Positions 2,858-61,510 of a stretch of 63,083 nucleotides of DNA are shown here, in pieces. Origin of the DNA: Ignavibacteria bacterium (lineage in GTDB: Bacteria > Elusimicrobiota > Endomicrobiia > PHAN01); contig JBGFRZ010000054.1 in assembly GCA_041694835.1 (NCBI GenBank), positions 1-63,083 of the forward strand, written 5' to 3'. A program made the position numbers and the translations under genes. Positions within the stretch are counted from its first letter, which is position 1. Every line of letters begins with the position of its first letter. Below the pieces are notes generated by a model. It was given only the letters and a program-made list of their open reading frames with translations. It made no database searches and was not told the origin of the DNA.

Positions 2858-4030
2858 ATGAAAAAATTGAAAGGATATTTCGGCAACTTCGGGGGCAGAT
2901 ATGTCCCGGAAACGCTTATACCATCACTCATAGAAGTTGAAAAAGGGTTTTCGGCGGCGATGAAAAGCGTTGATTTCAGGGAAAAACTTTCATTCTATCT
3001 CAGGAACTATGTTGGCAGACCGACCCCTATTTATTATGCTAAAAACTTGACAAATTACTTTAACTCTGCCCGAATATTCCTTAAAAGAGAGGATATTTGC
3101 CACACCGGCTCTCATAAAATCAATAACACCATCGGACAATCGCTTCTTGCAAAATTTCTCAAGAAAAACAGGGTCATCGCAGAAACGGGAGCGGGACAGC
3201 ACGGCGTAGCAACCGCTACCGCCTGCGCTCTCTTTGGATTAAAATGTGTTGTTTATATGGGTAAAAAAGACGTCGAAAGACAGACATTAAATGTCTATCG
3301 AATGAAACTGCTCGGTGCCGAGGTTATAGCAGTTGAGTCGGGAAGTCAGACGCTCAAAGACGCCATAAACGAGGCGTTGCGAGACTGGACTGCAAATGTC
3401 AAAAATACATTTTATCTGCTTGGCTCAGCCGTTGGCCCTCACCCCTACCCGACACTCGTCAGATACTTTCAGTCGGTTATAGGAAGGGAAGTCAGAGAAC
3501 AATTTCTTACTTTGAATAAAAAACTTCCAGATGTTCTCGTCGCTTGCGTCGGCGGGGGTTCAAATGCTATAGGACTTTTTCATCCTTTCTATAAAGATAA
3601 AAACGTGAAATTCATAGGTATTGAAGCGGCGGGCAAGGGCCTTTCGACAAATATGCACGCGGCTACGCTCCAGAAGGGGCGGGTTGGGATTTTGCACGGC
3701 TTTAAGTCGTATCTTCTTCAGGACAGATGCGGGCAAGTGATGGAGACGCACTCCATATCAGCCGGGCTTGATTATCCCGGCGTCGGTCCCGAGCACGCAT
3801 TTTATAAGGAAATCGGAAGGGCGAAGTATTATGGCGCGACGGATAAAGAGGCTATTGAGGGCTTCAAACTTCTTTCGCTTAAGGAAGGTATAATACCGGC
3901 TCTTGAGCCAAGTCACGCCATTGGATATCTGAAAAAAATAATGCCCGGGCTAAAAAAGACTCAGAGTGTTATAGTGTGTCTTTCAGGACGCGGCGACAAA
4001 GACCTTGACATAATCACAAGTGTCCGCTAA
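2858..4030 (+). CDS. trpB: Tryptophan synthase beta chain
   Basis: [29 protein letters not shown] (PLP lysine) and GGGSNAIG. Start set at ATG 2858, because the track ORF start at 2801 lies in the element arm. Confidence 0.95.
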
Positions 4031-5168: not shown

Positions 5169-5963
5169 ATGACTGAGATGCATTCTACAGAACAAATATG
5201 GAAAAAATGTTCCAAATGCGAGCAGATAATCTACGAGAAAGAACTGAAGGAAAATCTATGGATATGTCCTAAGTGCAAGAGTCCTTTCAGATTGGCGGTT
5301 AAAGAAAGACTTAAAATGCTTGTCGACGATAAAAGCTTCGAGGAGATGGCTACAAATATCGCTTCGCTCGACCCTCTCGGATTCCCCGGCTATTCCGAAA
5401 AACTTAAGAAACAAACTTCAAAAAACAGGGATGCGATCGCTGTAGGGACGGCATCGATAGGCGGCCATAAAGTCGTTCTTGCCATAATGGAGTTCGACTT
5501 CATGGGCGGGAGTATGGGCTCCGTAGTCGGGGAAAAAATTACCAACGCCATAGAACGAGCGATTAAAGAAAGGAAGCCGCTGATAATAATTTCGTCTTCC
5601 GGAGGCGCAAGGATGCAGGAAGGTATACTTTCGCTGATGCAGATGGCTAAAACATCTGCCGCCCTTTCAAGACTCGATGTCGAGAGAATCCCCTACATAT
5701 CAATTTTGACCGATCCCACCACAGGCGGGGTCAGCGCCTCATATGCCATGCTCGGTGATATAAATTTGGCAGAGGAAGGCGCTTTGATAGGTTTTGCCGG
5801 CCCCAGAGTTATAGAAGAGACGATAAAGCAAAAACTCCCGGATGGCTTTCAGCGTTCCCGATTTTTGCTTGAGCACGGAATTGTCGACATCGTCGCCGAA
5901 AGGAAGGAACTCAAAAACACTATCAAAAGACTTCTTGATGTCCTCCTTAAAAACAGGAAATAA
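5169..5963 (+). CDS. accD: Acetyl-CoA carboxylase carboxyltransferase beta subunit
   Basis: N-terminal Zn ribbon CSKCEQ...CPKC followed by FMGGSMGSVVGEK and the carboxyltransferase domain. Confidence 0.9.
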   Translation: MTEMHSTEQIWKKCSKCEQIIYEKELKENLWICPKCKSPFRLAVKERLKMLVDDKSFEEMATNIASLDPLGFPGYSEKLKKQTSKNRDAIAVGTASIGGHKVVLAIMEFDFMGGSMGSVVGEKITNAIERAIKERKPLIIISSSGGARMQEGILSLMQMAKTSAALSRLDVERIPYISILTDPTTGGVSASYAMLGDINLAEEGALIGFAGPRVIEETIKQKLPDGFQRSRFLLEHGIVDIVAERKELKNTIKRLLDVLLKNRK

Positions 5964-7373: not shown

Positions 7374-7571
7374 GGAACGCGGATAAACGCAGATTTGACA
7401 AGATTGACGCAGATGTTTTTGAAATCTATTGAATCCCGATGGTTATCGGGACAAGTTCCACGAAAATCTGCGTCCTAAAATTCATTGGGAACATTTCTAA
7501 TAGGACGCAGATGAACGCAGAAAAAACAGGATTTAAGAATTATCTGCGACAATCTGCGAAAATCTGCGTCC
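7374..7571. repeat. Two consecutive acgcaga-word hairpins
   Basis: ggaacgcggataaacgcagat...aaaatctgcgtcc, then ggacgcagatgaacgcagaaaa...atctgcgacaatctgcgaaaatctgcgtcc. Segment 7463-7548 is nearly identical to 19000-19084. Confidence 0.85.
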
Positions 7572-7595
7572 TAAAATAATCATAGGAGCAATAAT

Positions 7596-11477: not shown

Positions 11478-11742
11478 AATTAAAAATGCAAAATGCAAAA
11501 TGTAAAATTGTGGCAAAAAAACATTTTTAATAAAAAAAGAATTAAACCACAGATGAACACAGATGGACACAGATAGAAGATAAAATTACAAAAACAATCT
11601 GCGTGTATCTGCGTGAATCTGTGGTTCCAAAAATCTCAAATGCCTCCAACATTAAAATTAAATGGGAGCATGTCCATCTCTTTTTAGAGGACAGATATGA
11701 AATTGGGGAAGTTCCTTAATTTTGACTTTTGACTTTTTAATT
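11478..11742. repeat. Nested imperfect palindrome filling the whole intergenic gap
   Basis: Outer arms are aattaaaaatgcaaaatgcaaaat / aattttgacttttgactttttaatt. The inner hairpin is ccacagatgaacacagatggacacagat (11547-11574) / atctgcgtgtatctgcgtgaatctgtgg (11597-11624). Confidence 0.75.
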
Positions 11743-13444: not shown

Positions 13445-13523
13445 TAGAGCATAAAAGACAGAGCACAAGAGCACAAGTCATAAGAGCACAAGTTTTGACT
13501 TATGCACTTAAGCACTTGTGCAC
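13445..13523. repeat. gcacaag-word hairpin
   Basis: agagcacaagagcacaagtcataagagcacaagttttgacttatgcacttaagcacttgtgcac. It shares a ~40-nt core with 20940-20985. Confidence 0.8.
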
Positions 13524-13541
13524 TAATATTTAGAGGATGTA

Positions 13542-16687: not shown

Positions 16688-16835
16688 TCATCCCGATAGA
16701 CATCGGGATAAACTCCTGACACGGATTACACGGAACATCGTTGAAACCACAGATGAACACTGATGCACACGGATAAGAATTATCTGCGAAAATCTGTGTG
16801 CATCCCGCCAGGTCGGGACAAGTTATGTGGGGACA
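16688..16835. repeat. String of small hairpins / word repeats
   Basis: atcccgatagacatcgggat; ccacagatgaacactgatgcacacgg...atctgcgaaaatctgtgtgcatc; cccgccaggtcggg. Confidence 0.75.
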
Positions 16836-18249: not shown

Positions 18250-18588
18250 ATGAAAATTATAAATAAACAAATCACAAGAAACGAACTCAAAGAAATGGCA
18301 CAAAGCACTTTTGGAAATTTTGTAAAGGCAGTTATTGATGTTGAAAAAGAAATAATGGGAATCGACGCTGAATTGCACGCAGACGAAGAATCGCTGCTTT
18401 TGGAAAATGGTTCAAAGCAAGAAAATCTGTGGGGGCTCAACTTGTATCCTGAGAAAGAGGGAAGTGATTTTGTAGAATTTGATTCGGCGATTAACTTGAG
18501 ACCTGCAGGTGGAAATAAAAGCCGAGGGGTGGATAGTCCTGAAATCCGCAAAAAAATTATTGAAATAATTCATAAATTGATAGAATAG
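18250..18588 (+). CDS. DUF5674-like small protein
   Basis: VIDVEKEIMGIDAELHADEE...NLWGLNLYPE...INLRPAGGNKSRGV matches my memory of the DUF5674 family. Not verified by search. Confidence 0.6.
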   Translation: MKIINKQITRNELKEMAQSTFGNFVKAVIDVEKEIMGIDAELHADEESLLLENGSKQENLWGLNLYPEKEGSDFVEFDSAINLRPAGGNKSRGVDSPEIRKKIIEIIHKLIE

Positions 18589-18595
18589 ATAAGTT

Positions 18596-19107
18596 GGACG
18601 CAGATAACGCAGATTGACAGGATTACAAACACAAAAAGATAATTCGGGCTGATTCGTGTTCATTTGTGGTTAAATTATAGTTTTGTAATTTCCATGATTT
18701 CCGTGGCAAAGTTTTTAATTTACTATGGATTCCCGATTACTGTATTCGGGAATGACACTTTGTGTCATCTGCGAAAATCTGCGTCCTAAAAAACTAATTG
18801 GACGCGGATAAACGCAGAAACAACTTTGATAAACGCAGATTAAAGCAACTATAAACTCATCTGCGAAAGTCTGTGTCCTAAAAAGCTAATTGAACGCAGA
18901 TGAACGCAGAAAAAACGGAATTAAGAATCAAGTTTTTTTTCTTAATTCTCACCACTTAATCCGAGTGGTTAAGAGGTTTTTTATCTGCATTCATCCTGTA
19001 AATCTGCGTCCTAAAATTCATTAGGAACATTTCTAATGGGACGCGGTTGAACGCAGAAAAAACAGGATTTAAGAATTGTCTGCGTCAATCTTGTTAAATC
19101 TGCGTCC
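18596..19107. repeat. Array of four consecutive acgcaga-word hairpin units
   Basis: Each unit starts (g/t)g(g/a)acgc(a/g)g... and ends ...tctg(c/t)gtcctaa. 18767-18840 matches the reverse complement of 59655-59727, and 19000-19084 matches 7463-7548. Confidence 0.9.
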
Positions 19108-19116
19108 TAACATAAT

Positions 19117-19449
19117 ATGAAGTATCAACATAAAAATTTGGCGTTGGGCAGGTGGAACACTTTAACGCTTTCAGAACAAATGGCTAACATCGGCTCGGAA
19201 GTAATCCGTGCTTTGAAGTGGCTTAAAAAAGGCGACAGAGAATACTCTCAACTTGCTTCTGATAGGGCGTTGGAGTTGTTTGATTTGACACTGTCCGATG
19301 GGAAAAACCGGAAAAGATTGAAAGAAATCGCTCGGATGAGAGAAATCGTCGTTGAATTTTTTTACGGAAAAAATCAATACGACTACACCGCTGAGAGTTT
19401 AGAAAATTACTTTTTTGCATTCAATTATTACATCGCAGTAAATAGGTAA
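19117..19449 (+). CDS. Hypothetical small helical protein
   Basis: A clean 110-aa ORF bracketed by hairpin units. I cannot assign a family with confidence. Confidence 0.5.
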   Translation: MKYQHKNLALGRWNTLTLSEQMANIGSEVIRALKWLKKGDREYSQLASDRALELFDLTLSDGKNRKRLKEIARMREIVVEFFYGKNQYDYTAESLENYFFAFNYYIAVNR

Positions 19450-19938
19450 AGGCAGAGATAAAGATAGAGGTAAAGATGGATGGGTGTGTAAAATCAACTT
19501 ACAAAACTTTTAAAGAAATGACTGTTTGGCGGGATGCTATGAATGTTGCCGAGCATATTCACAAACTTACAGAAAATCTACCAAAAAAAGAAGATTATGG
19601 ATTTACATCGCAAATCCGTCGAGCCGCTTTGAGCATATCAGCCAATATAGCGGAAGCGTATGGCAGAAATCATATTTCCGACAAAATCAATTTTTATTAC
19701 TTTGCAAGGGGTTCTATAACGGAAACACAAAGCCATGTTGAGTATGGCAAAAGAGTTGGCTATATTGAAAAACAAGTTGCAGAATCAATTGACAAAACAC
19801 TGAGTGCTCTCTACAACAACATCAACAAAATCGTGGTAACGCTTAAGAAAACAGGTAAAGAAAATAGGTAGAGGTAGAGAAAAAACAAGTATAAGGTAGA
19901 AGTAGAGCTTATCTTTATCTTTACCTTTACCTTTATCT
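19445..19938 (+). mobile_element. IVS-like cassette: four-helix-bundle gene flanked by complementary ggtaaag / ctttacc word arms
   Basis: Left arm ggtaaaggcagagataaagatagaggtaaag (19445-19475). Right arm cttatctttatctttacctttacctttatct (about 19908-19938), plus a local ggtagaggtagag...ggtagaagtagag block. Confidence 0.6.
19476..19871 (+). CDS. Four-helix-bundle protein (23S rRNA intervening-sequence protein / Avd family)
   Basis: FKEMTVWRDAMNVAEHIHKLTENLPKKEDYGFTSQIRRAALSISANIAEAYGR...FYYFARGSITETQSH is the family signature as I remember it (PF05635-like). Confidence 0.85.
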   Translation: MDGCVKSTYKTFKEMTVWRDAMNVAEHIHKLTENLPKKEDYGFTSQIRRAALSISANIAEAYGRNHISDKINFYYFARGSITETQSHVEYGKRVGYIEKQVAESIDKTLSALYNNINKIVVTLKKTGKENR

Positions 19939-19945
19939 AATATCT

Positions 19946-20968
19946 ATGTCTTCAAAAATTTTAATCACCGGCGGGGCGGGATTTATCGGCTCTCACTTGT
20001 GCGATTATTTTATAGCAAAAAAACATGAAGTCATCGCGGTGGATAATTTGATAACGGGCGACATAAGAAACATCGAACATTTGTTCGGGCATCCAAAATT
20101 TCGGTTTGTAAAATACAATGTGACAAACTATCTCCATGCTCCGGGAAAAATAGACGCTGTCCTTCATTTCGCATCTCCCGCCAGCCCCGTGGATTATTTG
20201 AAATATCCAATACCCACACTTAAAGTCGGAGCGCTTGGCACTCACACCACTTTGGGATTGGCGAAAGAAAAAAAAGCAATTTTTATGCTTGCCTCAACCA
20301 GCGAGGTCTACGGCGACCCGATGATTTCGCCTCAAAAAGAGGGATATTGGGGCAATGTAAATCCGATTGGAGTTCGCGGTTGTTACGACGAAGCAAAAAG
20401 ATTCGCGGAAGCAATGACGATGGCATATCACAGATACCACGGGCTTGACACAAGGATAGTTAGAATTTTTAACACATACGGACCGAGGATGCGTCTAAAC
20501 GACGGCCGGGTCGTTCCGAATTTTATATATCAAGCGCTAAATAAAAAACCGCTCACCGTCTACGGCGACGGCACCCAAACGAGAAGTTTTTGCTATGTTT
20601 CTGACCTTGTCGAAGGCATATATAAACTTTTATTGTCAAAAGTAAATGAACCAGTCAACCTCGGCAATCCGACGGAACTCTCAATAAATGAATTCGCAAA
20701 GGTAATTGCCAAATTGACAAATTGCAAATCAAAAATTATAAACAAGCCGTTGCCACAAGATGACCCCAAACGGCGATGTCCCGACATAACAAAAGCGAAA
20801 AAATTGCTCAAATGGTCGCCTAAAATAAATCTTGAAGATGGACTCAAAAAAACCATAGAGTATTTCAATACAACAGGTATAATAAGAGCACAAGGCACAA
20901 GTCAGAGGTCAGAGGTCAGAGGTCAGAAATTAGAGCACAAGTGCACAAGGGCACAAGTTTTGACTTAA
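19946..20968 (+). CDS. uxs: UDP-glucuronate decarboxylase (UDP-xylose synthase)
   Basis: [27 protein letters not shown] and IFNTYGP. The last ~30 codons (from about 20880) are read out of the gcacaag / gtcagag repeat. Confidence 0.88.
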
Positions 20969-20998
20969 GCACTTAAGCACTTATGCTCTTATGCACTA
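20882..20998. repeat. gcacaag-word hairpin containing gtcagag x3.5 tandem heptamer
   Basis: ataagagcacaaggcacaag, gtcagag x3 (20901-20921), then agagcacaagtgcacaagggcacaagttttgacttaagcacttaagcacttatgctcttat. Confidence 0.8.
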
Positions 20999-22740: not shown

Positions 22741-23520
22741 ATGAAAATAGTCATACTTTGTGGCGGGTTAGGCGCACGACTTCGTGAAGAAACGGAGTTT
22801 CGTCCCAAACCAATGGTGGAAGTTGGTGGCAAACCGATTCTCTGGCATATTATGAAGATTTATGCTCATTATGGATTCAAAGATTTCATCCTCTGCCTCG
22901 GGTATAAAGGGGAGATGATTAAAGAGTATTTTTACAATTATGAAATTCTAAATAATGATTTTACAGTGGAACTTGGAAACCATAAGAGTATAGAAATCCA
23001 CAGTGGCCATGGTGAAAAAGGCTGGCGTATTACATTAGCCGATACCGGAGATAAAGCACTGAAAGGTGCTAGATTAAAAAGGATAGAAAAATACATTGAT
23101 GGCGGACAATTTATGGTTACTTATGGGGATGGTGTAGCGGATATTGATATAAATGATTTATTAAAATTTCACCAATCACACGGTAAATTGGCTACCCTGA
23201 CCGGTGTCCGTCCGCTTTCCCGTTTTGGAGAGTTTACCGTAAAAGGTAAGCAAGTTATACAATTTACCGAAAAACCTCAGAGTGCCGGTGGCCTTATAAA
23301 TGGAGGGTTTTTCGTCTTTAACCGTAAAATTTTCGATTACCTTGAGAATAAAGACGACTGTGATTTAGAGTATGGAGCTTTAGAAGAGGTTGCTTTGGAA
23401 GGTCAATTAATGGTTTATGAACATGATAGATTCTGGTATTGCATGGATACTATTCGGGATATGGATTATTTAAACAAGCTATGGACCCGAGGAAAGGCGC
23501 CATGGAGGGGATGGAAGTAG
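22741..23520 (+). CDS. rfbF: Glucose-1-phosphate cytidylyltransferase
   Basis: MKIVILCGGLGARLREETEFRPKPMVEVGGKPILWHIMKIY is the RfbF/DdhA signature. Confidence 0.9.
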   Translation: MKIVILCGGLGARLREETEFRPKPMVEVGGKPILWHIMKIYAHYGFKDFILCLGYKGEMIKEYFYNYEILNNDFTVELGNHKSIEIHSGHGEKGWRITLADTGDKALKGARLKRIEKYIDGGQFMVTYGDGVADIDINDLLKFHQSHGKLATLTGVRPLSRFGEFTVKGKQVIQFTEKPQSAGGLINGGFFVFNRKIFDYLENKDDCDLEYGALEEVALEGQLMVYEHDRFWYCMDTIRDMDYLNKLWTRGKAPWRGWK

Positions 23521-23522
23521 AA

Positions 23523-23967
23523 GATTAGAGGGTTGGAAGGTTGGAGGGTTAGTAATTGGCAAAGAATCTCTATAAAGATCTTGTTATATGGCAAAAAAGC
23601 ATTGAACTGATCAAGAACGTTTATAAAATAGCTGAATCTCTCCCCAAGTCTGAAGAATTCAACTTAAAACAACAATTAAAACGGTCTGTCGTTTCTGTAG
23701 CGTTAAACATTGCAGAAGGCAAGAATAGACGGACATCAAAAGATTTTGCAAATTTTCTAACTATGTCGGCGGCATCACTTGCCGAAGTTGAAGCTATTAT
23801 ATCAATCTGCAAAGAATTAAATTATCTGCAGGATGTTGACAGTATTTATAAAGACATAGAAAACCTGGGAAAGATGATCAATTCATTCAAGAGCAATCTA
23901 CTTGCAAGGAGTATGTAAATGACAATCCAATCTTCCAACCCTCTAACCCTCCAACCCTCAAACCCTC
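23523..23967 (+). mobile_element. IVS-like cassette: four-helix-bundle gene flanked by complementary ggttgga / ccaaccctc word arms
   Basis: Left arm gattagagggttggaaggttggagggttag (23523-23552). Right arm atccaatcttccaaccctctaaccctccaaccctcaaaccctc (23925-23967). Confidence 0.65.
23556..23918 (+). CDS. Four-helix-bundle protein (23S rRNA intervening-sequence protein / Avd family)
   Basis: YKDLVIWQKSIELIKNVYKIAESLPKSEEFNLKQQLKRSVVSVALNIAEGKNRRTSKDFANFL. TTG start as given in the track. Confidence 0.85.
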   Translation: MAKNLYKDLVIWQKSIELIKNVYKIAESLPKSEEFNLKQQLKRSVVSVALNIAEGKNRRTSKDFANFLTMSAASLAEVEAIISICKELNYLQDVDSIYKDIENLGKMINSFKSNLLARSM

Positions 23968-24167
23968 TTTTTTCAAGGGTAAACGGGTTTTTATCACAGG
24001 CCATACAGGATTTAAAGGTTCATGGCGAAGGCTTCCGCGATTTTATTATCAGGGAAGACCTTCCTGGTTTTATCAATCTTGCAGGAATAGAGTCCCCTGG
24101 TCTTACTGCAGCGCCTGCTATTGCCAAGTATGTCAAGAAAATGCTTAACGGAAGGAGCAATTTATGA
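23966..24167 (+). pseudogene. Chimeric remnant: ~20 codons of CDP-glucose 4,6-dehydratase N-terminus joined to the C-terminal tail of an FAD-dependent oxidoreductase
   Basis: One frame reads [19 protein letters not shown] (23969-24026). The other reads [40 protein letters not shown] (24027-24167). The track ORF 23919..24167 merges repeat arm plus fragments. Confidence 0.7.
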
Positions 24168-25255
24168 AGATATTAATTACGGGTAATATGGGTTATATTG
24201 GACCCTCTGTAGTTCGGAGGCTGAAGGCATCTTATCCTGACTCAACACTCATTGGTTTTGATATGGGTTATTTTGCAAATTGTTTGACAAATGAAGAGAT
24301 ACTTCCTGAGTGCAACGTTGATCTGCAATACTTTGCAGATATCAGAAAATGCCAGAGAGAATTGCTGACAGGGGTAGATGCGATTGTCCACCTCGCTGCC
24401 ATATCAAATGATCCCATGGGGAACACCTTTGAAGATGTAACGCATGATATTAATTACCGTTCAAGTATTGAGCTGGCAAAAAAAGCGAAAGAGGCAGGGG
24501 TAAAGAGGTTTGTTTATGCCTCCAGTTGCAGTATGTATGGTTTTGCTGATGATGCCCCGAGAACCGAGGCATCTCCACTTAATCCTCTTACTGCCTACGC
24601 TAAATCCAAAGTCTTTACTGAGAGAGACCTGCAAAAGATAGCAGATAAGGAATTTGTTGTGACAAGCCTGAGGTTTGCAACAGCCTGCGGAATGAGCGAA
24701 CGCTTAAGACTGGATTTGGTGTTAAATGATTTTGTGGCATGTGCAGTTTCTTCAAAAAAGATTACCATCCTAAGCGACGGAACACCGTGGAGGCCGTTAA
24801 TAAATATAAAAGATATGGCGAGGGCGGTTGATTGGGCAATAAGGAGGCAATCGGCTGACGGGGGAGAATATGTGGCTGTCAATACAGGCAGCAATGACTG
24901 GAACTGTCAGGTAAAAGATTTGGCAGAGGCTGTAGCAAGTGTTATCCCTGGCGTTGACATCTCAATAAATAAAAATGCCCAACCAGATAAACGATCCTAT
25001 AAAGTAAGTTTTGACCTTTACAGGCAATTGGCTCCTGATTATCAACCCAAGGTTGACTTAATAACAAGCATCGTGGAATTAAAGGATGGTCTTGAGGCAA
25101 TGAATTTTAATAATCCGGATTTTAGAAACTCAAAGTTTATAAGGTTAAAAGTTTTAACAAACCTAAAAGGCAAAGGCCTGCTGAATGAAAACCTTGAGTG
25201 GGATATAGCGGGGTATAAAGAAAATAAGGACTTAAGACAGATTTGCCTTGATTAA
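24164..25255 (+). CDS. NAD-dependent epimerase/dehydratase family protein (extended SDR), specificity unknown
   Basis: [12 protein letters not shown] and YAKSK. 363 aa. Confidence 0.7.
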
Positions 25256-25294
25256 ATCAAAGAGTGTTCCGAGTATTGAGTGGAGGTGTAAAGG

Positions 25295-26704
25295 ATGGGA
25301 AACAAAGAACTGGAAAATGAACTTCGCCGAAAGGTAATTGATTCGGCAATCAGATATTATGAATTCAAGTATAAAAATAAAAAGTCTTTCAAACCAGGCG
25401 ACCGCATACCTTATGCAAGTCGTGTATTTGATGAAAAGGAGATTTCTAATCTTATAGAATCAGCTCTTGATTTCTGGCTTACCACCGGCAGATATGCTGA
25501 AAGTTTTGAGAAGGAGTTTGCAGAGTTTCTCGGCGTTAAACATTGCTCTCTTACAAATTCCGGCTCATCTGCTAATCTTCTTGCTTTTATGGCATTGACA
25601 TCGCCAAAACTTGGAGAAAGAAGAATAAAAAAGGGTGACGAAGTAATCACTGTGGCAGCAGGTTTTCCAACCACTGTGACCCCGATTATACAGTACGGTG
25701 CAGTTCCGGTCTTTGTGGACATTACACTTCCATCATACAACATTGACTGCAATCAATTAGAAGCAGCTCTATCGGAAAAAACAAAAGCCATAATGGTTGC
25801 CCATACTCTTGGGAATCCTTTTGACCTGAATGCTGTAAAAGGTTTTTGTGACAAGCACAACCTCTGGCTGATTGAAGACAACTGCGATGCCCTCGGAAGC
25901 AAATATAGAAGATTGGAAGATTTGATGATTGGGAGTTCAACTACTCCTCCAACCCTCCAATCCTCCAACCCTCCAACCTTCCAATACACAGGCACTTTCG
26001 GACACATAGGCACCTCCAGCTTCTACCCTCCTCACCATATAACTATGGGAGAAGGAGGCGCGGTTTACACAAACGATAATCTGCTCAAGAGATTGATTGA
26101 ATCTTTCCGTGACTGGGGCAGGGATTGCTGGTGCGCTTCCGGGAAGGATAATACCTGTGGAAAACGTTTTGATTGGCAACTCGGGGAACTACCCTATGGT
26201 TATGACCATAAATATATCTATTCTCATTTTGGGTATAATCTAAAAGTCACCGACATGCAGGCAGCCATCGGCTGCGCCCAATTAGAAAAACTGCCGGGCT
26301 TTATTGAGGCAAGGAAAAGAAACTGGAAGATGTTAAGAGAGGGATTAGATGATTTATCCAATGTTTTTATCTTGCCAGAGCCTACGCCAAATTCTGAGCC
26401 AAGCTGGTTTGGGTTTATCCTCACTGTTAAAGAAAATACAGGTTTCTTGAGGGATGATATTGTGAAGTATTTAGAAGAAAATGGAATACAGACACGAATG
26501 CTTTTTGCAGGCAATCTTATAAAACACCCCTGTTTTGATGAGATAAGAACGACGGGAGAAGGGTATAGGGTTGTGGGAAGCCTTGAGAATACCGACAGGA
26601 TTATGAGAGATACCTTCTGGGTTGGAGTCTATCCTGGGATGACTAAAGAAATGATTCTCTATATGATAGAGAAGATTCGTGATTTTTGTGAGGGTAAATC
26701 ATAA
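25295..26704 (+). CDS. rfbH: CDP-4-keto-6-deoxyglucose 3-dehydratase (E1, RfbH/DdhC-like) carrying an in-frame repeat insertion
   Basis: DegT-fold with His at the PLP-lysine position ([14 protein letters not shown]) and a Cys cluster [16 protein letters not shown]. Confidence 0.8.
25907..25984 (+). repeat. 78-nt in-frame palindromic word-repeat insertion inside rfbH-like CDS
   Basis: agaagattggaagatttgatgattgggag ... ctcctccaaccctccaatcctccaaccctccaaccttccaa. It encodes [26 protein letters not shown]. attggaag pairs with cttccaat. Confidence 0.75.
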
Positions 26705-27259
26705 ATGCAATTTGATATAAAACAAACAAAAATACCACATTGTTTTGAACTTTTACCAAGGTTTTTCAGAGATGAACGTGGTTCTTTTGTAAAGACTTTC
26801 CATGTAGATGTTTTTAAACAATATGGGATAGAGACACATTTTGCAGAGGAATATTATTCATTTTCACATAAAAGGGTCTTGAGGGGATTGCATTTTCAAC
26901 TGCCGCCGATGGACCATGTGAAGTTAGTTTATTGTGTGTATGGAAGATTGTTGGATGTAGTAGTCGACTTAAGGGTTGGTTCTCCAACTTATGGTGAGTT
27001 TGAAACCTTTGAACTGAGTGCTGAACAATCTAACATGGTTTATATTCCAAAAGGCTTGGCACATGGCTTTTATGTGATGAGTGAAGGTGCGGTTATGATG
27101 TATAAGGTTACAACAGTTTATTCTCCAGAACATGATACCGGGATTTTGTGGAATTCCATAGGTATCCCATGGCCTGATGAAAAACCTATTATTTCTAAAA
27201 GGGATAGTGAATTTTTGGGCTTTAAAGATTTCAAAAGCCCTTTTATTTATCGAAAATGA
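26705..27259 (+). CDS. RmlC-family sugar 3,5- (or 5-) epimerase (AscE-like)
   Basis: FRDERGSFVKTF, LRGLHFQ and GLAHGF cupin motifs. Confidence 0.8.
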   Translation: MQFDIKQTKIPHCFELLPRFFRDERGSFVKTFHVDVFKQYGIETHFAEEYYSFSHKRVLRGLHFQLPPMDHVKLVYCVYGRLLDVVVDLRVGSPTYGEFETFELSAEQSNMVYIPKGLAHGFYVMSEGAVMMYKVTTVYSPEHDTGILWNSIGIPWPDEKPIISKRDSEFLGFKDFKSPFIYRK

Positions 27260-28185
27260 AAAGTGAGAGAGTCGCTTTAGTTACAGGTGCTACTGGATTT
27301 GTTGGTTCACATCTTGCTAAACGGTTAGTTAATGATGGATGGAATGTGCATATAGTTGTCCGTCCACAATCTAATCTTGACATTATTTCGGACATAATAG
27401 AAAAATTGACCATCCACAGGCATGATGGGACGACCGAGGGAATACTTGGTATTCTGAATGAGGCGAAACCGAAAATTGTCTTTCATTTAGCCTCTCTTTT
27501 CCTTGCTGAGCACCAAACGAAGGACATTGAGTCATTAATAAAAAGTAATATCTTATTTGGCACTCAACTTATAGAGGCAATGGTAAGGAACGAGATATAT
27601 AAATTGATTAATACCGGCACATCGTGGCAGCATTATAATAATGAAGATTACAATCCTGTAAATTTATATGCCGCGACAAAACAGGCATTTGAAGCTATTT
27701 TGAAGTTTTATATAGAGACAACGCCATTGAGAGCGATTACCTTAAAACTCTTTGATACCTATGGTCCAAATGACCCGAGACCAAAACTCTTTACTTTACT
27801 GAGAAGAGTTGCATCAGAGAACAATTCACTTGCGATGTCGCCAGGAAACCAACTTGTAGATCTTGTGTATATTGATGATGTAGTTGAAGCGTTTATACAT
27901 GCAGCAGTAAGATTGCTCGAAAATAAAGTCCAAAACCATGAGCGATATGCGGTGTCATCTGGTAAACCTATAAAACTTATAGATATCGTGAAAGTATATG
28001 AAAAAATCATCGGGCGAGAATTACCAATTCAATGGGGCGGTAAACCATATAGGAATCGTGAAGTAATGAAACCGTGGCTAAATTATAAGGTCTTACCTGT
28101 CTGGAAGCCAAATATCAGTTTAGAAGAAGGTATAAAGAAATGTACAATAGTAACACATCAAACGCAAAATAGATTTGAAGATTAA
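27256..28185 (+). CDS. SDR sugar 4-reductase (CDP-abequose/paratose/ascarylose synthase-like)
   Basis: VTGATGFVGSHL and YAATK. Lies in the context after the E1 and epimerase genes. Confidence 0.65.
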   Translation: MKSERVALVTGATGFVGSHLAKRLVNDGWNVHIVVRPQSNLDIISDIIEKLTIHRHDGTTEGILGILNEAKPKIVFHLASLFLAEHQTKDIESLIKSNILFGTQLIEAMVRNEIYKLINTGTSWQHYNNEDYNPVNLYAATKQAFEAILKFYIETTPLRAITLKLFDTYGPNDPRPKLFTLLRRVASENNSLAMSPGNQLVDLVYIDDVVEAFIHAAVRLLENKVQNHERYAVSSGKPIKLIDIVKVYEKIIGRELPIQWGGKPYRNREVMKPWLNYKVLPVWKPNISLEEGIKKCTIVTHQTQNRFED

Positions 28186-48644: not shown

Positions 48645-48920
48645 TTATTGAACTTCGCATAATTAGTTGATATTCTGGCTTAACAATTTTGGAGCGAAAC
48701 GAGGAACGAGGAGCGAGGCATACCCTCGGCGGTATGTAAGCGACGAGTGACAAAGTTGTAGCCCAAAAGTGTTAAGCCCCTTCGGGGAGGCAGAACTTTG
48801 GCTGATTTCTGTGTCGTTCGTTGTTTATGTAGCACTGCGGCTACACCGCACTCCTCACTCCTTGAAATCACCTCAAATCTATGCCTCCAAAATGTCAAAT
48901 AATTATGCGAAGTTCAATAA
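48645..48920 (+). repeat. ~278-bp structured palindromic element, copy 2
   Basis: Termini ttattgaacttcgcataattagttgatattctg / caaaatgtcaaataattatgcgaagttcaataa. The core aligns with copies 1 and 3 and includes ccccttcgggg. Confidence 0.85.
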
Positions 48921-59410: not shown

Positions 59411-59640
59411 TATGAGATTATTGAAAAAGTTCTTCTACCACACAAGACGCAAAAAATGTGTAAGAAATTTTTTGCAACAAAGCACAAGTTTTGTAGTTGC
59501 AGACCTTGGTCTGCACAAGTGCACAAGGCATAAGAGCACAAGTGCACAAGTCACTGTAAATCCCCCTGCTTCGCTTCCCCCTTTACAAAAGGGGGATAGA
59601 GGGGATTTTCCGTGATTTCCAACTTTCGCGCTTTCGTGGT
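59411..59640. repeat. Composite palindromic repeat block, copy B (inverted partner of 797-1004)
   Basis: See 797-1004. It has an extra 23 nt, cacaaggcataagagcacaagtg, relative to copy A. Confidence 0.85.
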
Positions 59641-59653
59641 TCAAATCTTTTTT

Positions 59654-59754
59654 CATCTGCGTTTATCAAAGTTGTTTCTGCGTTCATCTGCGTTCAATTA
59701 TTTTTTAGGACGCAGATTTTCGCAGATTTGATAGATATTAAAAACATCTGCGTC
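59654..59754. repeat. acgcaga-word hairpins (inverted relative to the 18.7-kb copy)
   Basis: catctgcgtttatcaaagttgtttctgcgttcatctgcgttcaatt...aggacgcagattttcgcagat. Confidence 0.85.
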
Positions 59755-59879
59755 AATCTTGGCGTAGTCGTCAGGGCGGATGTTACAGTTGCAATGGGAG
59801 CTGTAAAGAAGGGATTAATGGCTAAATGGGCGAAAAATTACGTCGGTCGGCTGAAGGTGGCTGATATTGGAATAAAAAT

Positions 59880-61231: not shown

Positions 61232-61510
61232 TAGTGCTCTGTGCCATAAATAATTGACATTTTGCACGAACGATTTTGGAGCGAAACAAAGAACGAGGAG
61301 TGAAGCATACCCTCTGTGGTATGTGAGCGACGAGTGATGAAGAAGTTGTAGCCCAAAAGCGCCGTGCCCTTCGGGGTTCGTCATCTTTGGGGCATTTCTG
61401 CGTCACTCCTCGTTTATGTAGCACTGCGGCTACACCGCACTCGTCGTTCCTTGAACTGCCCTCAAATCTGACGAACCAAAATGCTCAACTATTTATGGCA
61501 CAGAGCACTA
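61232..61510 (+). repeat. ~278-bp structured palindromic element, copy 3
   Basis: Termini tagtgctctgtgccataaataattgacattttg / caaaatgctcaactatttatggcacagagcacta. The core contains gcccttcgggg. Confidence 0.85.

Follow-up and report, generated by a model that had tools for sequence, protein, structure and literature searches.

In this study, we analyzed a 63,083-nucleotide (nt) stretch of contig JBGFRZ010000054.1, which is called the window throughout. A small gene of the PF05635 family lies in it between rfbF and the remnant of rfbG, two genes of a sugar-nucleotide operon, and is enclosed by two arms of short tandem words that are complementary to each other. The gene together with its arms is referred to here as cassette 1, and the window holds a second such cassette. 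The source organism is an uncultured bacterium, whose TrpB shares 67-69% identity with proteins from genome bins of Elusimicrobiota and Omnitrophota. The features at the locus are as follows (ORF, open reading frame; aa, amino acids).

22741..23520, + strand: rfbF, glucose-1-phosphate cytidylyltransferase (TIGR02623, 350 bits; cut-off 300)
23512..23552, + strand: left arm, reading TGGAAGTAGAAGATTAGAGGGTTGGAAGGTTGGAGGGTTAG; G/A/T-rich without C; inverted repeats and tandem repeat
23556..23918, + strand: cassette ORF with TTG start, encoding a 120-aa four-helix-bundle protein (PF05635/TIGR02436 by profile scores)
23926..23975, + strand: right arm, C/A/T-rich with a T-run after the word array; inverted repeats and tandem repeat

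A PF05635 gene is enclosed by complementary word arms

The TAG stop codon of rfbF (23518-23520) falls inside the start of the left arm, where gattagagggttggaaggttggagggttag begins at 23523, and the C-terminal codons TGGAAG of rfbF are similar to the arm words. The left arm is built of about four tandem 8-mers (GAAGATTA, GAGGGTTG, GAAGGTTG, GAGGGTTAG), and its tandem repeat of period 8 spans 23520-23550. A Shine-Dalgarno-like GGAGG site of the cassette gene is contained in this arm, with GGAGGG located 8-13 nt 5' of the TTG start. The cassette gene ends with TAA (23916-23918), and atccaatcttcc follows from 23925. The right arm has five tandem 8-mers (TCCAATCT, TCCAACCC, TCTAACCC, TCCAACCC, TCAAACCC) in a word array without G (23926-23968), and its tandem repeat, also of period 8, spans 23937-23968. 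The arms were detected as inverted repeats, in which a 26-nt pair was 92% complementary and a longer 39-nt pair was 79% complementary. When at most two mismatches were allowed, GGTTGGAGGGTT occurred 15 times in the window compared with 3.3 expected, and none of 100 shuffles matched this count. Three clusters, in the left arm, in the right arm and at one site inside rfbH, accounted for 12 of the 15 occurrences. The G+C content of the two cassette ORFs was 34-37%, compared with 39.5% for the window.

The RNA of positions 23505-23985 (481 nt) was then folded. The arms were paired in both the minimum-energy and the centroid structures, with 21 consecutive pairs, and the fold had a z of -3.9 that was not reached by any of 100 shuffles. 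When only the arms were folded with a GAAA linker, the energy was -47.9 kcal/mol (z=-6.2), and none of 200 shuffles was equally stable. Folding of the same arms with DNA parameters gave z=-4.2. A preliminary description of this locus had given the coordinates, the ORF and the complementary arms, all of which were accurate when the window sequence was re-read, and the architecture that it named, an ORF within a long stem in an mRNA operon, is real. In both fold comparisons the arms paired better than the shuffled controls. A scan for promoters and terminators in and beside cassette 1 found no signal above chance, and the cassette as an independent transcription unit was therefore rejected. Positions 23521-23967 are one inserted module, which consists of a PF05635 gene and two complementary arms of 8-nt words and lies co-directionally between rfbF and rfbG.

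The arms and the gene were acquired together

The nearest RfbF relative found (locus L094, 85% identity) has a plain junction, rfbF-TAA-aa-ATG-rfbG, without arms or ORF. This junction indicates that the arms and the ORF entered together and that the inserted unit is 23521-23967, nearly the same interval as in the preliminary description. The preliminary description had called for syntenic rfbF-rfbG loci that lack the cassette, and the clean empty junction of L094 supports insertion as a unit. None of the 80 closest rfbF loci, which came from metagenomes, carried the cassette. No target-site duplication was visible against the L094 empty site, a comparison made across 15% protein divergence.

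Proteins 60-76% identical to that of cassette 1 carry the same GGTTGGAG-type 8-mers between unrelated genes. The contexts of these close homologues include QueC and a flavoprotein, a histidine kinase (HisKA) and a response regulator, and rfbH and an epimerase. Relatives of the cassette-2 protein (about 70% identical), including one in the cultured Thermodesulfovibrio yellowstonii, have AAGGTA/TACCTT 6-mers like those of cassette 2. Word type and period thus track the protein subfamily, which implies that the ORF and the arms are inherited as a unit. The locus had been described earlier as a mobile or processed cassette, and its cassette nature is probably right in view of the empty site and of the same words between unrelated genes.

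The element was also compared with transposable elements of the miniature inverted-repeat type (MITEs) and insertion sequences. Terminal inverted repeats were present, but the tandem words were not conserved between copies. Near-identical multiple copies were not found in the window, where the two cassettes have different arm words and proteins only 26% identical. The four-helix-bundle protein is the only ORF in the element and has no known catalytic motif. Taken together, a conserved stem-bracketed cassette that was inserted as a unit is very probable.

The cassette protein belongs to the rRNA intervening-sequence family

The cassette-1 protein scored 116.8 bits with PF05635 (cut-off 33.8) over residues 7-110 and 112.9 bits with TIGR02436 (cut-off 24). 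It also matched PDB 2GSC, a pentameric four-helix bundle, with E=1.4e-16 and 2RLD with 3e-5. Its earlier assignment as a PF05635-like 23S rRNA intervening-sequence protein was borne out by these profile scores, which lie far above the cut-offs, and by the 2GSC match. The conserved R-x3-S-x3-N-x2-E motif is present as R43, S47, N51 and E54 in KRSVVSVALNIAEG, and N51, R58, S74 and E77 were invariant among 32 relatives. The nearest relative among 5.8 billion proteins was 76% identical, and an exact-sequence look-up returned no record. A profile search of the family gave 31,800 clusters at 50% identity with E<=0.001.

Models of Avd, the protein of diversity-generating retroelements, remained below their cut-offs with the cassette-1 protein (PF22296 bAvd, 32.2 against 40; NF033474, 33.9 against 80). 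No reverse transcriptase was seen among the scanned genes, which were both four-helix-bundle genes and those in 18250-19449 and 22741-28185; the rest of the window was partly scanned and no search for template or variable repeats was made. The scanned neighbours in these two regions encode sugar-nucleotide enzymes, uncharacterised small proteins and gene fragments. Searches of PADLOC and of a phage collection gave no match, and the defence-system and phage readings were therefore dropped. Rfam found only two tRNAs in the window, so that there is neither an rRNA context nor a known RNA family for the arms, and no rRNA was found in 15 related loci.

Complementary arms flank most relatives in many phyla

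The loci of close relatives were taken from public contigs, and 80 loci from named genomes were added via the family alignment; the statistics were calculated on 77 distinct loci. The sampled taxa were Desulfobacterota, Nitrospirota, Methylomirabilota, Elusimicrobiota, Firestonebacteria, Melainabacteria, Bacteroidota, Spirochaetia, Planctomycetota, Omnitrophota, phyla of the Candidate Phyla Radiation (CPR), Deinococcota, Pseudomonadales and DPANN archaea. As the arm statistic, we used the highest local complementarity of the upstream flank to the downstream flank. Duplex energy was discarded because its background was too high, as long flanks always yielded some loopy duplex.

Flank complementarity was above all 100 dinucleotide shuffles in 68% of the 77 loci and reached p<=0.05 in 78%. 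In 68% of loci it was also higher than the 95th percentile of 99 control genes, which were taken from these same loci (Mann-Whitney p=1e-16), and true flank pairs exceeded mismatched pairs of upstream and downstream arms (p=2e-27). The expectation of the preliminary description that copies of the family carry inverted arms thus holds for most of these relatives, against shuffles as well as control genes. A tandem array above the control 95th percentile was present on at least one side in 73% of loci. Where both sides had arrays, the period was the same in 32 of 34 loci, with 8 as the commonest period, followed by 7 and then 6, and each arm had about four word copies across loci. Upstream arrays contained 35% G and 11% C, and downstream arrays contained 37% C and 12% G. 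On reading the flanks, the picture was near-universal: a G-rich tandem array stands just upstream of the gene and its reverse complement just downstream.

The words varied between lineages, but the two arms remained complementary. They included GGTCGGAAGG / CCTTCCGACC, GCAGATGCGC / GCGCATCTGC, GGCAGGAAGG / CCTTCCTGCC and AGATGCAAAG / CTTTGCATCT, and also GCTATCGGCTAT, GTCTAGG, GGCTCAAGG and GAAGGTCGAAGG. Among 11 syntenic orthologues of Melainabacteria, 6 of the 27 pairs of the consensus stem showed compensatory double changes. Both neighbouring genes were co-oriented with the cassette in 60 of the 77 loci. The same layout was observed on finished plasmids of cultured cyanobacteria, and three of these cases gave p=0.000 when compared with 200 shuffles: Nostoc punctiforme PCC 73102, Anabaena sp. 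90, in which the gene lies between cas6 and cas4, and Picosynechococcus PCC 7003, in which it lies between cmr2 and cmr3. These results show that free-standing PF05635 genes of many phyla normally lie inside a long stem. A search of the open full-text literature, which excludes subscription-only papers, found no description of complementary word arrays flanking PF05635 genes. The window cassette is one example of a general regularity that appears to be undescribed.

A second cassette and gene-less hairpins occur in the window

The window contains another PF05635 cassette and hairpins made of words without an ORF, two of which are listed below with it.

19444..19938, + strand: second cassette (cassette 2), a PF05635 ORF between arms of 6-nt words
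19444-19477, + strand: left arm of cassette 2, AGGTAAAGGCAGAGATAAAGATAGAGGTAAAG, words AGGTAAAG / AGATAAAG
19476-19871, + strand: ORF of cassette 2, 131 aa (PF05635 114.5 bits, TIGR02436 114.3 bits)
19909-19938, + strand: right arm of cassette 2, CTTATCTTTATCTTTACCTTTACCTTTATCT, words CTTTAC / CTTTAT
20929..20997, + strand: ORF-less word hairpin between UXS and the next gene, with GCACAAGT x3, loop tttg and ACTTAAGC x4
25908..25984, - strand: ORF-less hairpin in rfbH (25295-26704) made of GGTTGGAG/CCTCCAAC words; best fold on the minus strand, -40 kcal/mol, z=-5.6

The proteins of the two cassettes are 26% identical, and the arm words differ between them. The inverted-repeat pairs of the cassette-2 arms were each 91% complementary, and the arms paired both in the full-region fold (z=-3.3) and in the arms-only fold (z=-6.0). 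The preliminary description had made flanking arms of other family members a test of its view, and this second member of the window does have them, with different words of about 6 nt.

The rfbH hairpin is an in-frame insertion that adds about 29 aa relative to the RfbH model, and its orientation is opposite to that of cassette 1. The same site is occupied in a digester lineage (L008-L013) whose RfbH aligns closely with that of the window, and strains of this lineage that are 99.8% identical differ by a 48-nt (six-word) indel at the hairpin. The hairpin at 20929-20997 folded with z=-3.4 on the plus strand and -5.6 on the minus strand. It has a near-identical sister of the same GCACAAG word type at 13452-13524, and the arms of the two are GAGCACAAG x3 and ACTTAAGC x3-4 around a TTTTG loop. 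After each of these two hairpins comes CACTAAT, and a Shine-Dalgarno-like purine run with the ATG of the next gene stands about 10-15 nt beyond it.

Another dispersed family of hairpins, of the ACGCAGA type, was found at 7387-7573, 11545-11626, 16745-16800, 18590-19110 and 59650-59760. Its arms consist of two period-10 words (GGACGCAGATNAACGCAGA ... TCTGCG..ATCTGCGTCC), and the core GCAGAT is similar to cassette arm words in Firestonebacteria (L033, L043). Two small operon genes lie upstream of cassette 2, encoding a DUF5674 protein (18250-18588) and a 110-aa ORF without a family match (19117-19449), and four hairpins of the ACGCAGA type stand in series between them. The DUF5674 gene is preceded by GGTAATC x4, with no complementary partner after it. 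A repeat of about 150 nt occurs in inverted orientation at 800-960 and 59480-59620, 58 kb apart, so that its copies bracket the whole polysaccharide gene cluster; it contains GCACAAG words and a CCCCCTTT..AAAGGGGG hairpin. Three further inverted-repeat pairs (2542-2819, 48645-48920 and 61232-61510) have non-word arms of 26-34 nt that are 91-97% complementary and enclose 208-227 nt. Two of these pairs share similar arms (CTAGTGTCCTGTCCCGCAAATA / TAGTGCTCTGTGCCATAAATA), and their appearance is of the MITE type.

Some cassettes have a third array (L008 at 2933-3050, the window at 19872-19938, L023, L037 and L071). In these, a second G-type array comes right after the stop codon and is followed by the C-type arm, for which both local pairing and pairing with the distant left arm are then possible. 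This arrangement looks like an alternative-structure switch.

rfbG is interrupted downstream of the right arm

The region after the cassette gene contains two gene fragments.

23919..24024, + strand: rfbG 5' remnant; its ATG at 23919 abuts the cassette stop, and it begins MTIQSSNP..., as L017 begins MTIQPSNP...
24025..24167, + strand: 3' fragment (last ~45 codons) of a FAD-dependent oxidoreductase gene (PF01266 C-terminus; NF033460 positions 322-361)

The rfbF|cassette|rfbG layout was found in 13 other genomes, and rfbG was intact in all of them. In each of them, rfbG has a start codon in frame at -11 to +2 nt from the cassette stop (ATGA, TAATG or TAAATG), and the right arm is translated as an N-terminal RfbG extension of 26-46 residues, for example MTIQPSNPPNLQAS in L017. 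The inserted unit is closely knit into the translation of its neighbours. In the window, about 19 codons of the conserved RfbG N-terminus (23968-24024) are intact after the arm but stand in the +2 frame. Relative to the ATG at 23919, the reading frame is displaced by exactly one 8-nt word, and one word fewer would restore it; the right arm has five words, compared with four in the left arm and four in L017. When the intact RfbG of L016 and L017 were used in tblastn, they aligned only to 23933-24034. RfbG homology thus ends at about 24025-24034, some 57 nt past the arm, where the stump is fused to the oxidoreductase fragment, and the stop codon of this fragment overlaps the start of the next epimerase gene. 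The junction may be genuine, from a deletion or rearrangement, or may have arisen in assembly. An intact rfbG was not found elsewhere in the window, though rfbF, rfbH and later pathway genes are present.

These results indicate that rfbG of the window is dead, but that the break is not exactly at the arm and that the cassette is compatible with a working rfbG. The preliminary description had stated that rfbG was destroyed exactly at the right arm and had argued from this for a genetic cost of insertion. The first statement was rejected on account of the 13 intact loci and of the codons preserved past the arm, and the cost argument falls with the same 13 genomes.

Word arrays were also seen at or in rfbG of other genomes. 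At the rfbF-rfbG junction of L096 and L113, there are ORF-less arrays of GTTAGCT-type 7-mers with about five units and a self-complementary AGCT core. In L016, a Geobacteraceae bin, a solo C-type array of about eight words lies in frame inside rfbG at 3927-3990 (TNPPALRPSDPPTFQPSDFP). Its words are those of the cassette arms 0.5 kb upstream, and a further G-type/C-type hairpin is located at 5660-5810.

Comparison with known systems

The nearest known system is the ORF-bearing intervening sequence of rRNA. Intervening sequences of 23S rRNA that encode S23p/PF05635 proteins, as in Leptospira and Coxiella burnetii, are sporadically distributed, and horizontal transfer has been inferred for them (PMC4990558). 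In Coxiella, RNase III cleaves the 28-bp terminal stem of the element in vitro, and a role of the ORF in mobility has long been suggested (PMC4990558). The window cassette shares with them the protein family and the complementary element ends that form a long stem, but it fails the defining rRNA location: its host is an mRNA operon (rfbF and the rfbG remnant), and neither the window nor the 15 related loci have rRNA. Unlike those of the rRNA elements, arms of the window type are tandem 6-8-nt words with G-rich/C-rich polarity, and they often overlap the coding sequence of neighbours, with stop and start codons that abut each other. PF05635 genes have also been reported wedged inside cas operons (PMC3936711) and in rRNA insertions of CPR bacteria (10.1101/2024.02.27.582315).

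Arrays of 7-8-nt units are known from intergenic regions (PMC4692102, PMC4679880): GGGAATC in Xanthomonas, GGGGA(C/T)T in Nostoc, TAACTGA in Beggiatoaceae and cyanobacteria, and the cyanobacterial arrays called STRR. These arrays, which the ORF-less arrays found here resemble, consist of about four units and lie between co-oriented genes; pairs in convergent orientation can fold into stem-loops, whole units are gained or lost, and the arrays are unexplained (PMC4692102, PMC4679880). The window arms resemble STRR-type arrays, whose units are 5-11 nt long and number about 2-6, in their period of 8, about four copies, co-oriented neighbours and whole-word indel (48 nt, six words). Unlike the arrays of Xanthomonas, Nostoc and Beggiatoaceae, those of the window type bracket a specific gene family, and their words vary by lineage. 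The portions of PMC4692102 and PMC4679880 that were searched describe ORF-less arrays and make no link to PF05635 genes.

Avd binds RNA and reverse transcriptase; an upstream/downstream duplex encloses the template RNA of its retroelement, with a stem-loop nearby to which Avd binds (10.1101/2023.10.23.563531). The family of the window protein has the homologous four-helix-bundle pentamer fold. Unlike Avd, the window protein scores under the Avd cut-offs, and its neighbours are sugar-nucleotide enzymes. Like the gene cassettes of integrons, the window cassette is a promoter-less single-gene module that is co-directional in a transcribed array or operon. The recombination site of integrons is recognised by its folded structure rather than its sequence, and this site, attC, is one contiguous imperfect palindrome downstream of the gene. 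The window cassette differs in having arms on either side of the gene, without an integrase or an array.

Among small inverted-repeat elements, the Correia/NEMIS elements of Neisseria lie in operons and are co-transcribed, and Correia hairpins are RNase III substrates. The palindromic elements of Rickettsia, also small inverted repeats, insert in frame into protein-coding genes and in this respect resemble the rfbH hairpin of the window. Both groups have a conserved sequence, many near-identical copies and no ORF, whereas the cassette has free sequence, conserved pairing and a gene in the loop.

Possible action of the stem and alternative explanations

The explanation that we favor overall, with confidence and doubt in about equal measure, is a stem-bracketed cassette that resembles rRNA intervening sequences and lives in operons. 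That its stem acts at the RNA level is possible from the sequence evidence, although here our doubt slightly prevails. In the polycistronic mRNA, the arms would pair into a stem of about 25-40 bp with the ORF looped out, as in the S23p intervening sequences of 23S rRNA. The stem would be the feature under selection, making a selfish or accessory gene tolerable inside an operon. It may offer double-stranded RNA for processing, which would release or limit the transcript of the cassette. The left arm holds the ribosome-binding site of the cassette and the right arm the region where the next gene starts, and the stem may also hide both, with a translational relay from rfbF through the cassette to rfbG via the abutting stop and start codons. 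These two roles do not exclude each other. Shine-Dalgarno-like 4-mers averaged 4.5 per 80 nt upstream of cassette genes, compared with 2.3 in background windows. The left arm begins 0-3 nt after the upstream stop, and the right arm begins just after the cassette stop and the next start codon, so that ribosomes coming from upstream could open each arm in turn.

Several observations weigh against this explanation. About a quarter of the family members have no arms, including L008b, which is inside an operon, and L175, and an armed copy is present in a Nanoarchaeia genome (L019). The mismatches in the stems, 123 G-U and 106 A-C, showed no clear sense-strand bias. The sense hairpin was more stable than the antisense hairpin in 35 of 57 loci (Wilcoxon p=0.03, for loci that are not independent), and the two strands of cassette 1 were about equal (-70.8 vs -72.5 kcal/mol). 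ORF-less hairpins of the same words also occur nearby, even inside coding regions, which indicates that the arms have an independent life that a role in mRNA only does not explain. Because G-U bias was absent, sense hairpins were only weakly favored and the ORF-less hairpins resembled mobile DNA, a mobile element at the DNA level was kept as the main rival.

According to this rival, which we consider somewhat unlikely, the arms work in DNA as the terminal inverted repeats or the hairpin or cruciform ends of a mobile element. The protein would be a mobility or maintenance factor that binds the words, and the ORF-less hairpins would be non-autonomous, MITE-like derivatives. Complementarity is symmetrical between strands, and the arms fold with DNA parameters too (z=-4.2 and -4.4). 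About a dozen loci (e.g. L037, L039, L024, L071 and L178) have ORF-less hairpins of the local words within a few kb; the hairpin of L037 is the left arm of the neighbouring cassette followed by a short loop and the right arm, and the window has the same-word hairpin inside rfbH. The word copy number differs between 99.8%-identical strains, proteins 60-70% identical occur in bacterial and archaeal phyla in unrelated gene contexts, and cassettes are found on cyanobacterial plasmids. The tracking of protein subfamily by word type is also what recognition of the words by the protein would produce. However, no recent copies were seen, the two window genes being just 26% identical, and comparison with the empty site showed no target-site duplication. 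The protein lacks any known fold or motif of a nuclease or recombinase and had no PADLOC match, and the loops of the ORF-less hairpins held no ORF remnant when searched with the family profile (nothing below E=0.8). The strict G-rich-upstream polarity and the operon co-orientation point to a strand-specific constraint at the transcript level.

The arms might also be word hairpins that the host already had, like the heptamer arrays of Xanthomonas, Nostoc and Beggiatoaceae, with the PF05635 gene landing in their loops in the way that rRNA intervening sequences occupy the tips of helices 25 and 45; we regard this as quite improbable. Many ORF-less hairpins of other words are present in the window (GCACAAG at 13452 and 20929; ACGCAGA at 7387, 11545 and 18590-19110), and L096 and L113 have ORF-less word arrays at the very rfbF-rfbG junction. 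In Xanthomonas, GGGAATC arrays form 70-75 convergent pairs that stand between genes of the same orientation, and most have four units (PMC4692102). Arms supplied by the target would not travel with the gene, but close homologues across phyla and contexts share the word family and the period. Moreover, the empty site of the nearest relative has no hairpin, and the two cassettes of this one genome have different words, each matching its own protein subfamily.

Contingency loci are very improbable as an explanation. The right arm lies in the 5' coding region of rfbG and 8 is not a multiple of 3, so that gain or loss of one word would switch rfbG, and hence the surface sugar, on or off. Translation of the right arm in 13 of 13 rfbF|cassette|rfbG loci, the displacement of window rfbG by exactly one 8-nt word and the variation of word number between strains fit this idea. 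The word repeats are imperfect, however, so that slow slippage is expected, and the cassette arms were identical among the strain-level variants examined. Such loci also leave the complementary left arm, the subfamily with 6-nt words and the non-coding arms unexplained. Finally, the arms could be chance low-complexity sequence or an assembly artefact, as the window is probably a contig of metagenomic origin and assemblers can be misled by tandem repeats. This is almost certainly wrong: no shuffle reached the observed pairing, the flank complementarity was set apart from that of the 99 control genes, and the same layout occurred in independent assemblies, isolate genomes and finished cyanobacterial plasmids, so that the cross-genome data refute it.

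Significance for the PF05635 family

The PF05635 'four helix bundle protein' genes rank with the most frequent small genes of bacteria and archaea that lack an explanation, and the arms provide a lead for them. They are known wedged in cas operons, sugar operons and rRNA genes without an assigned function. A wider joint reading, which we hold to be unlikely, is that the PF05635 genes and their arms are one widespread unrecognised class of selfish elements in bacteria and archaea, with about 32,000 clusters at 50% identity. Under this reading, the pentameric protein would recognise the tandem words, with about one word per subunit, and would drive the spread or retention of stem-bracketed cassettes in transcribed DNA such as operons, cas loci and rRNA. 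Excision of the stem by RNase III would render the insertion harmless to the host RNA, and ORF-less hairpins, including the heptamer and octamer arrays of Xanthomonas and cyanobacteria, would be non-autonomous relatives.

For annotation, the arms explain odd low-complexity N- and C-terminal extensions of neighbouring proteins and in-frame insertions of the 'PSNPPTLQ' type, and they mark sites where slippage by one word can frameshift a neighbouring gene. Cultured carriers are available in Thermodesulfovibrio yellowstonii, Nostoc punctiforme PCC 73102, Anabaena sp. 90, Picosynechococcus PCC 7003, Meiothermus and Calidithermus. In four of them the cassette lies at a known locus: about 1,856,239-1,856,610 of BSDX01000001.1 in T. 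yellowstonii (GCA_027925485.1), NPUN_RS33770 on pNPUN01 in N. punctiforme, ANA_RS23230 on pANA02 in Anabaena sp. 90 and AWQ21_RS15215 in Picosynechococcus PCC 7003. The covarying long-range stem of words links ordinary operons to ORF-bearing rRNA intervening sequences, a puzzle of 30 years' standing, and it suggests a possible origin for some of the unexplained intergenic heptamer and octamer arrays. It may also hint at the original role of the Avd fold, namely binding of the duplex that brackets its own RNA.

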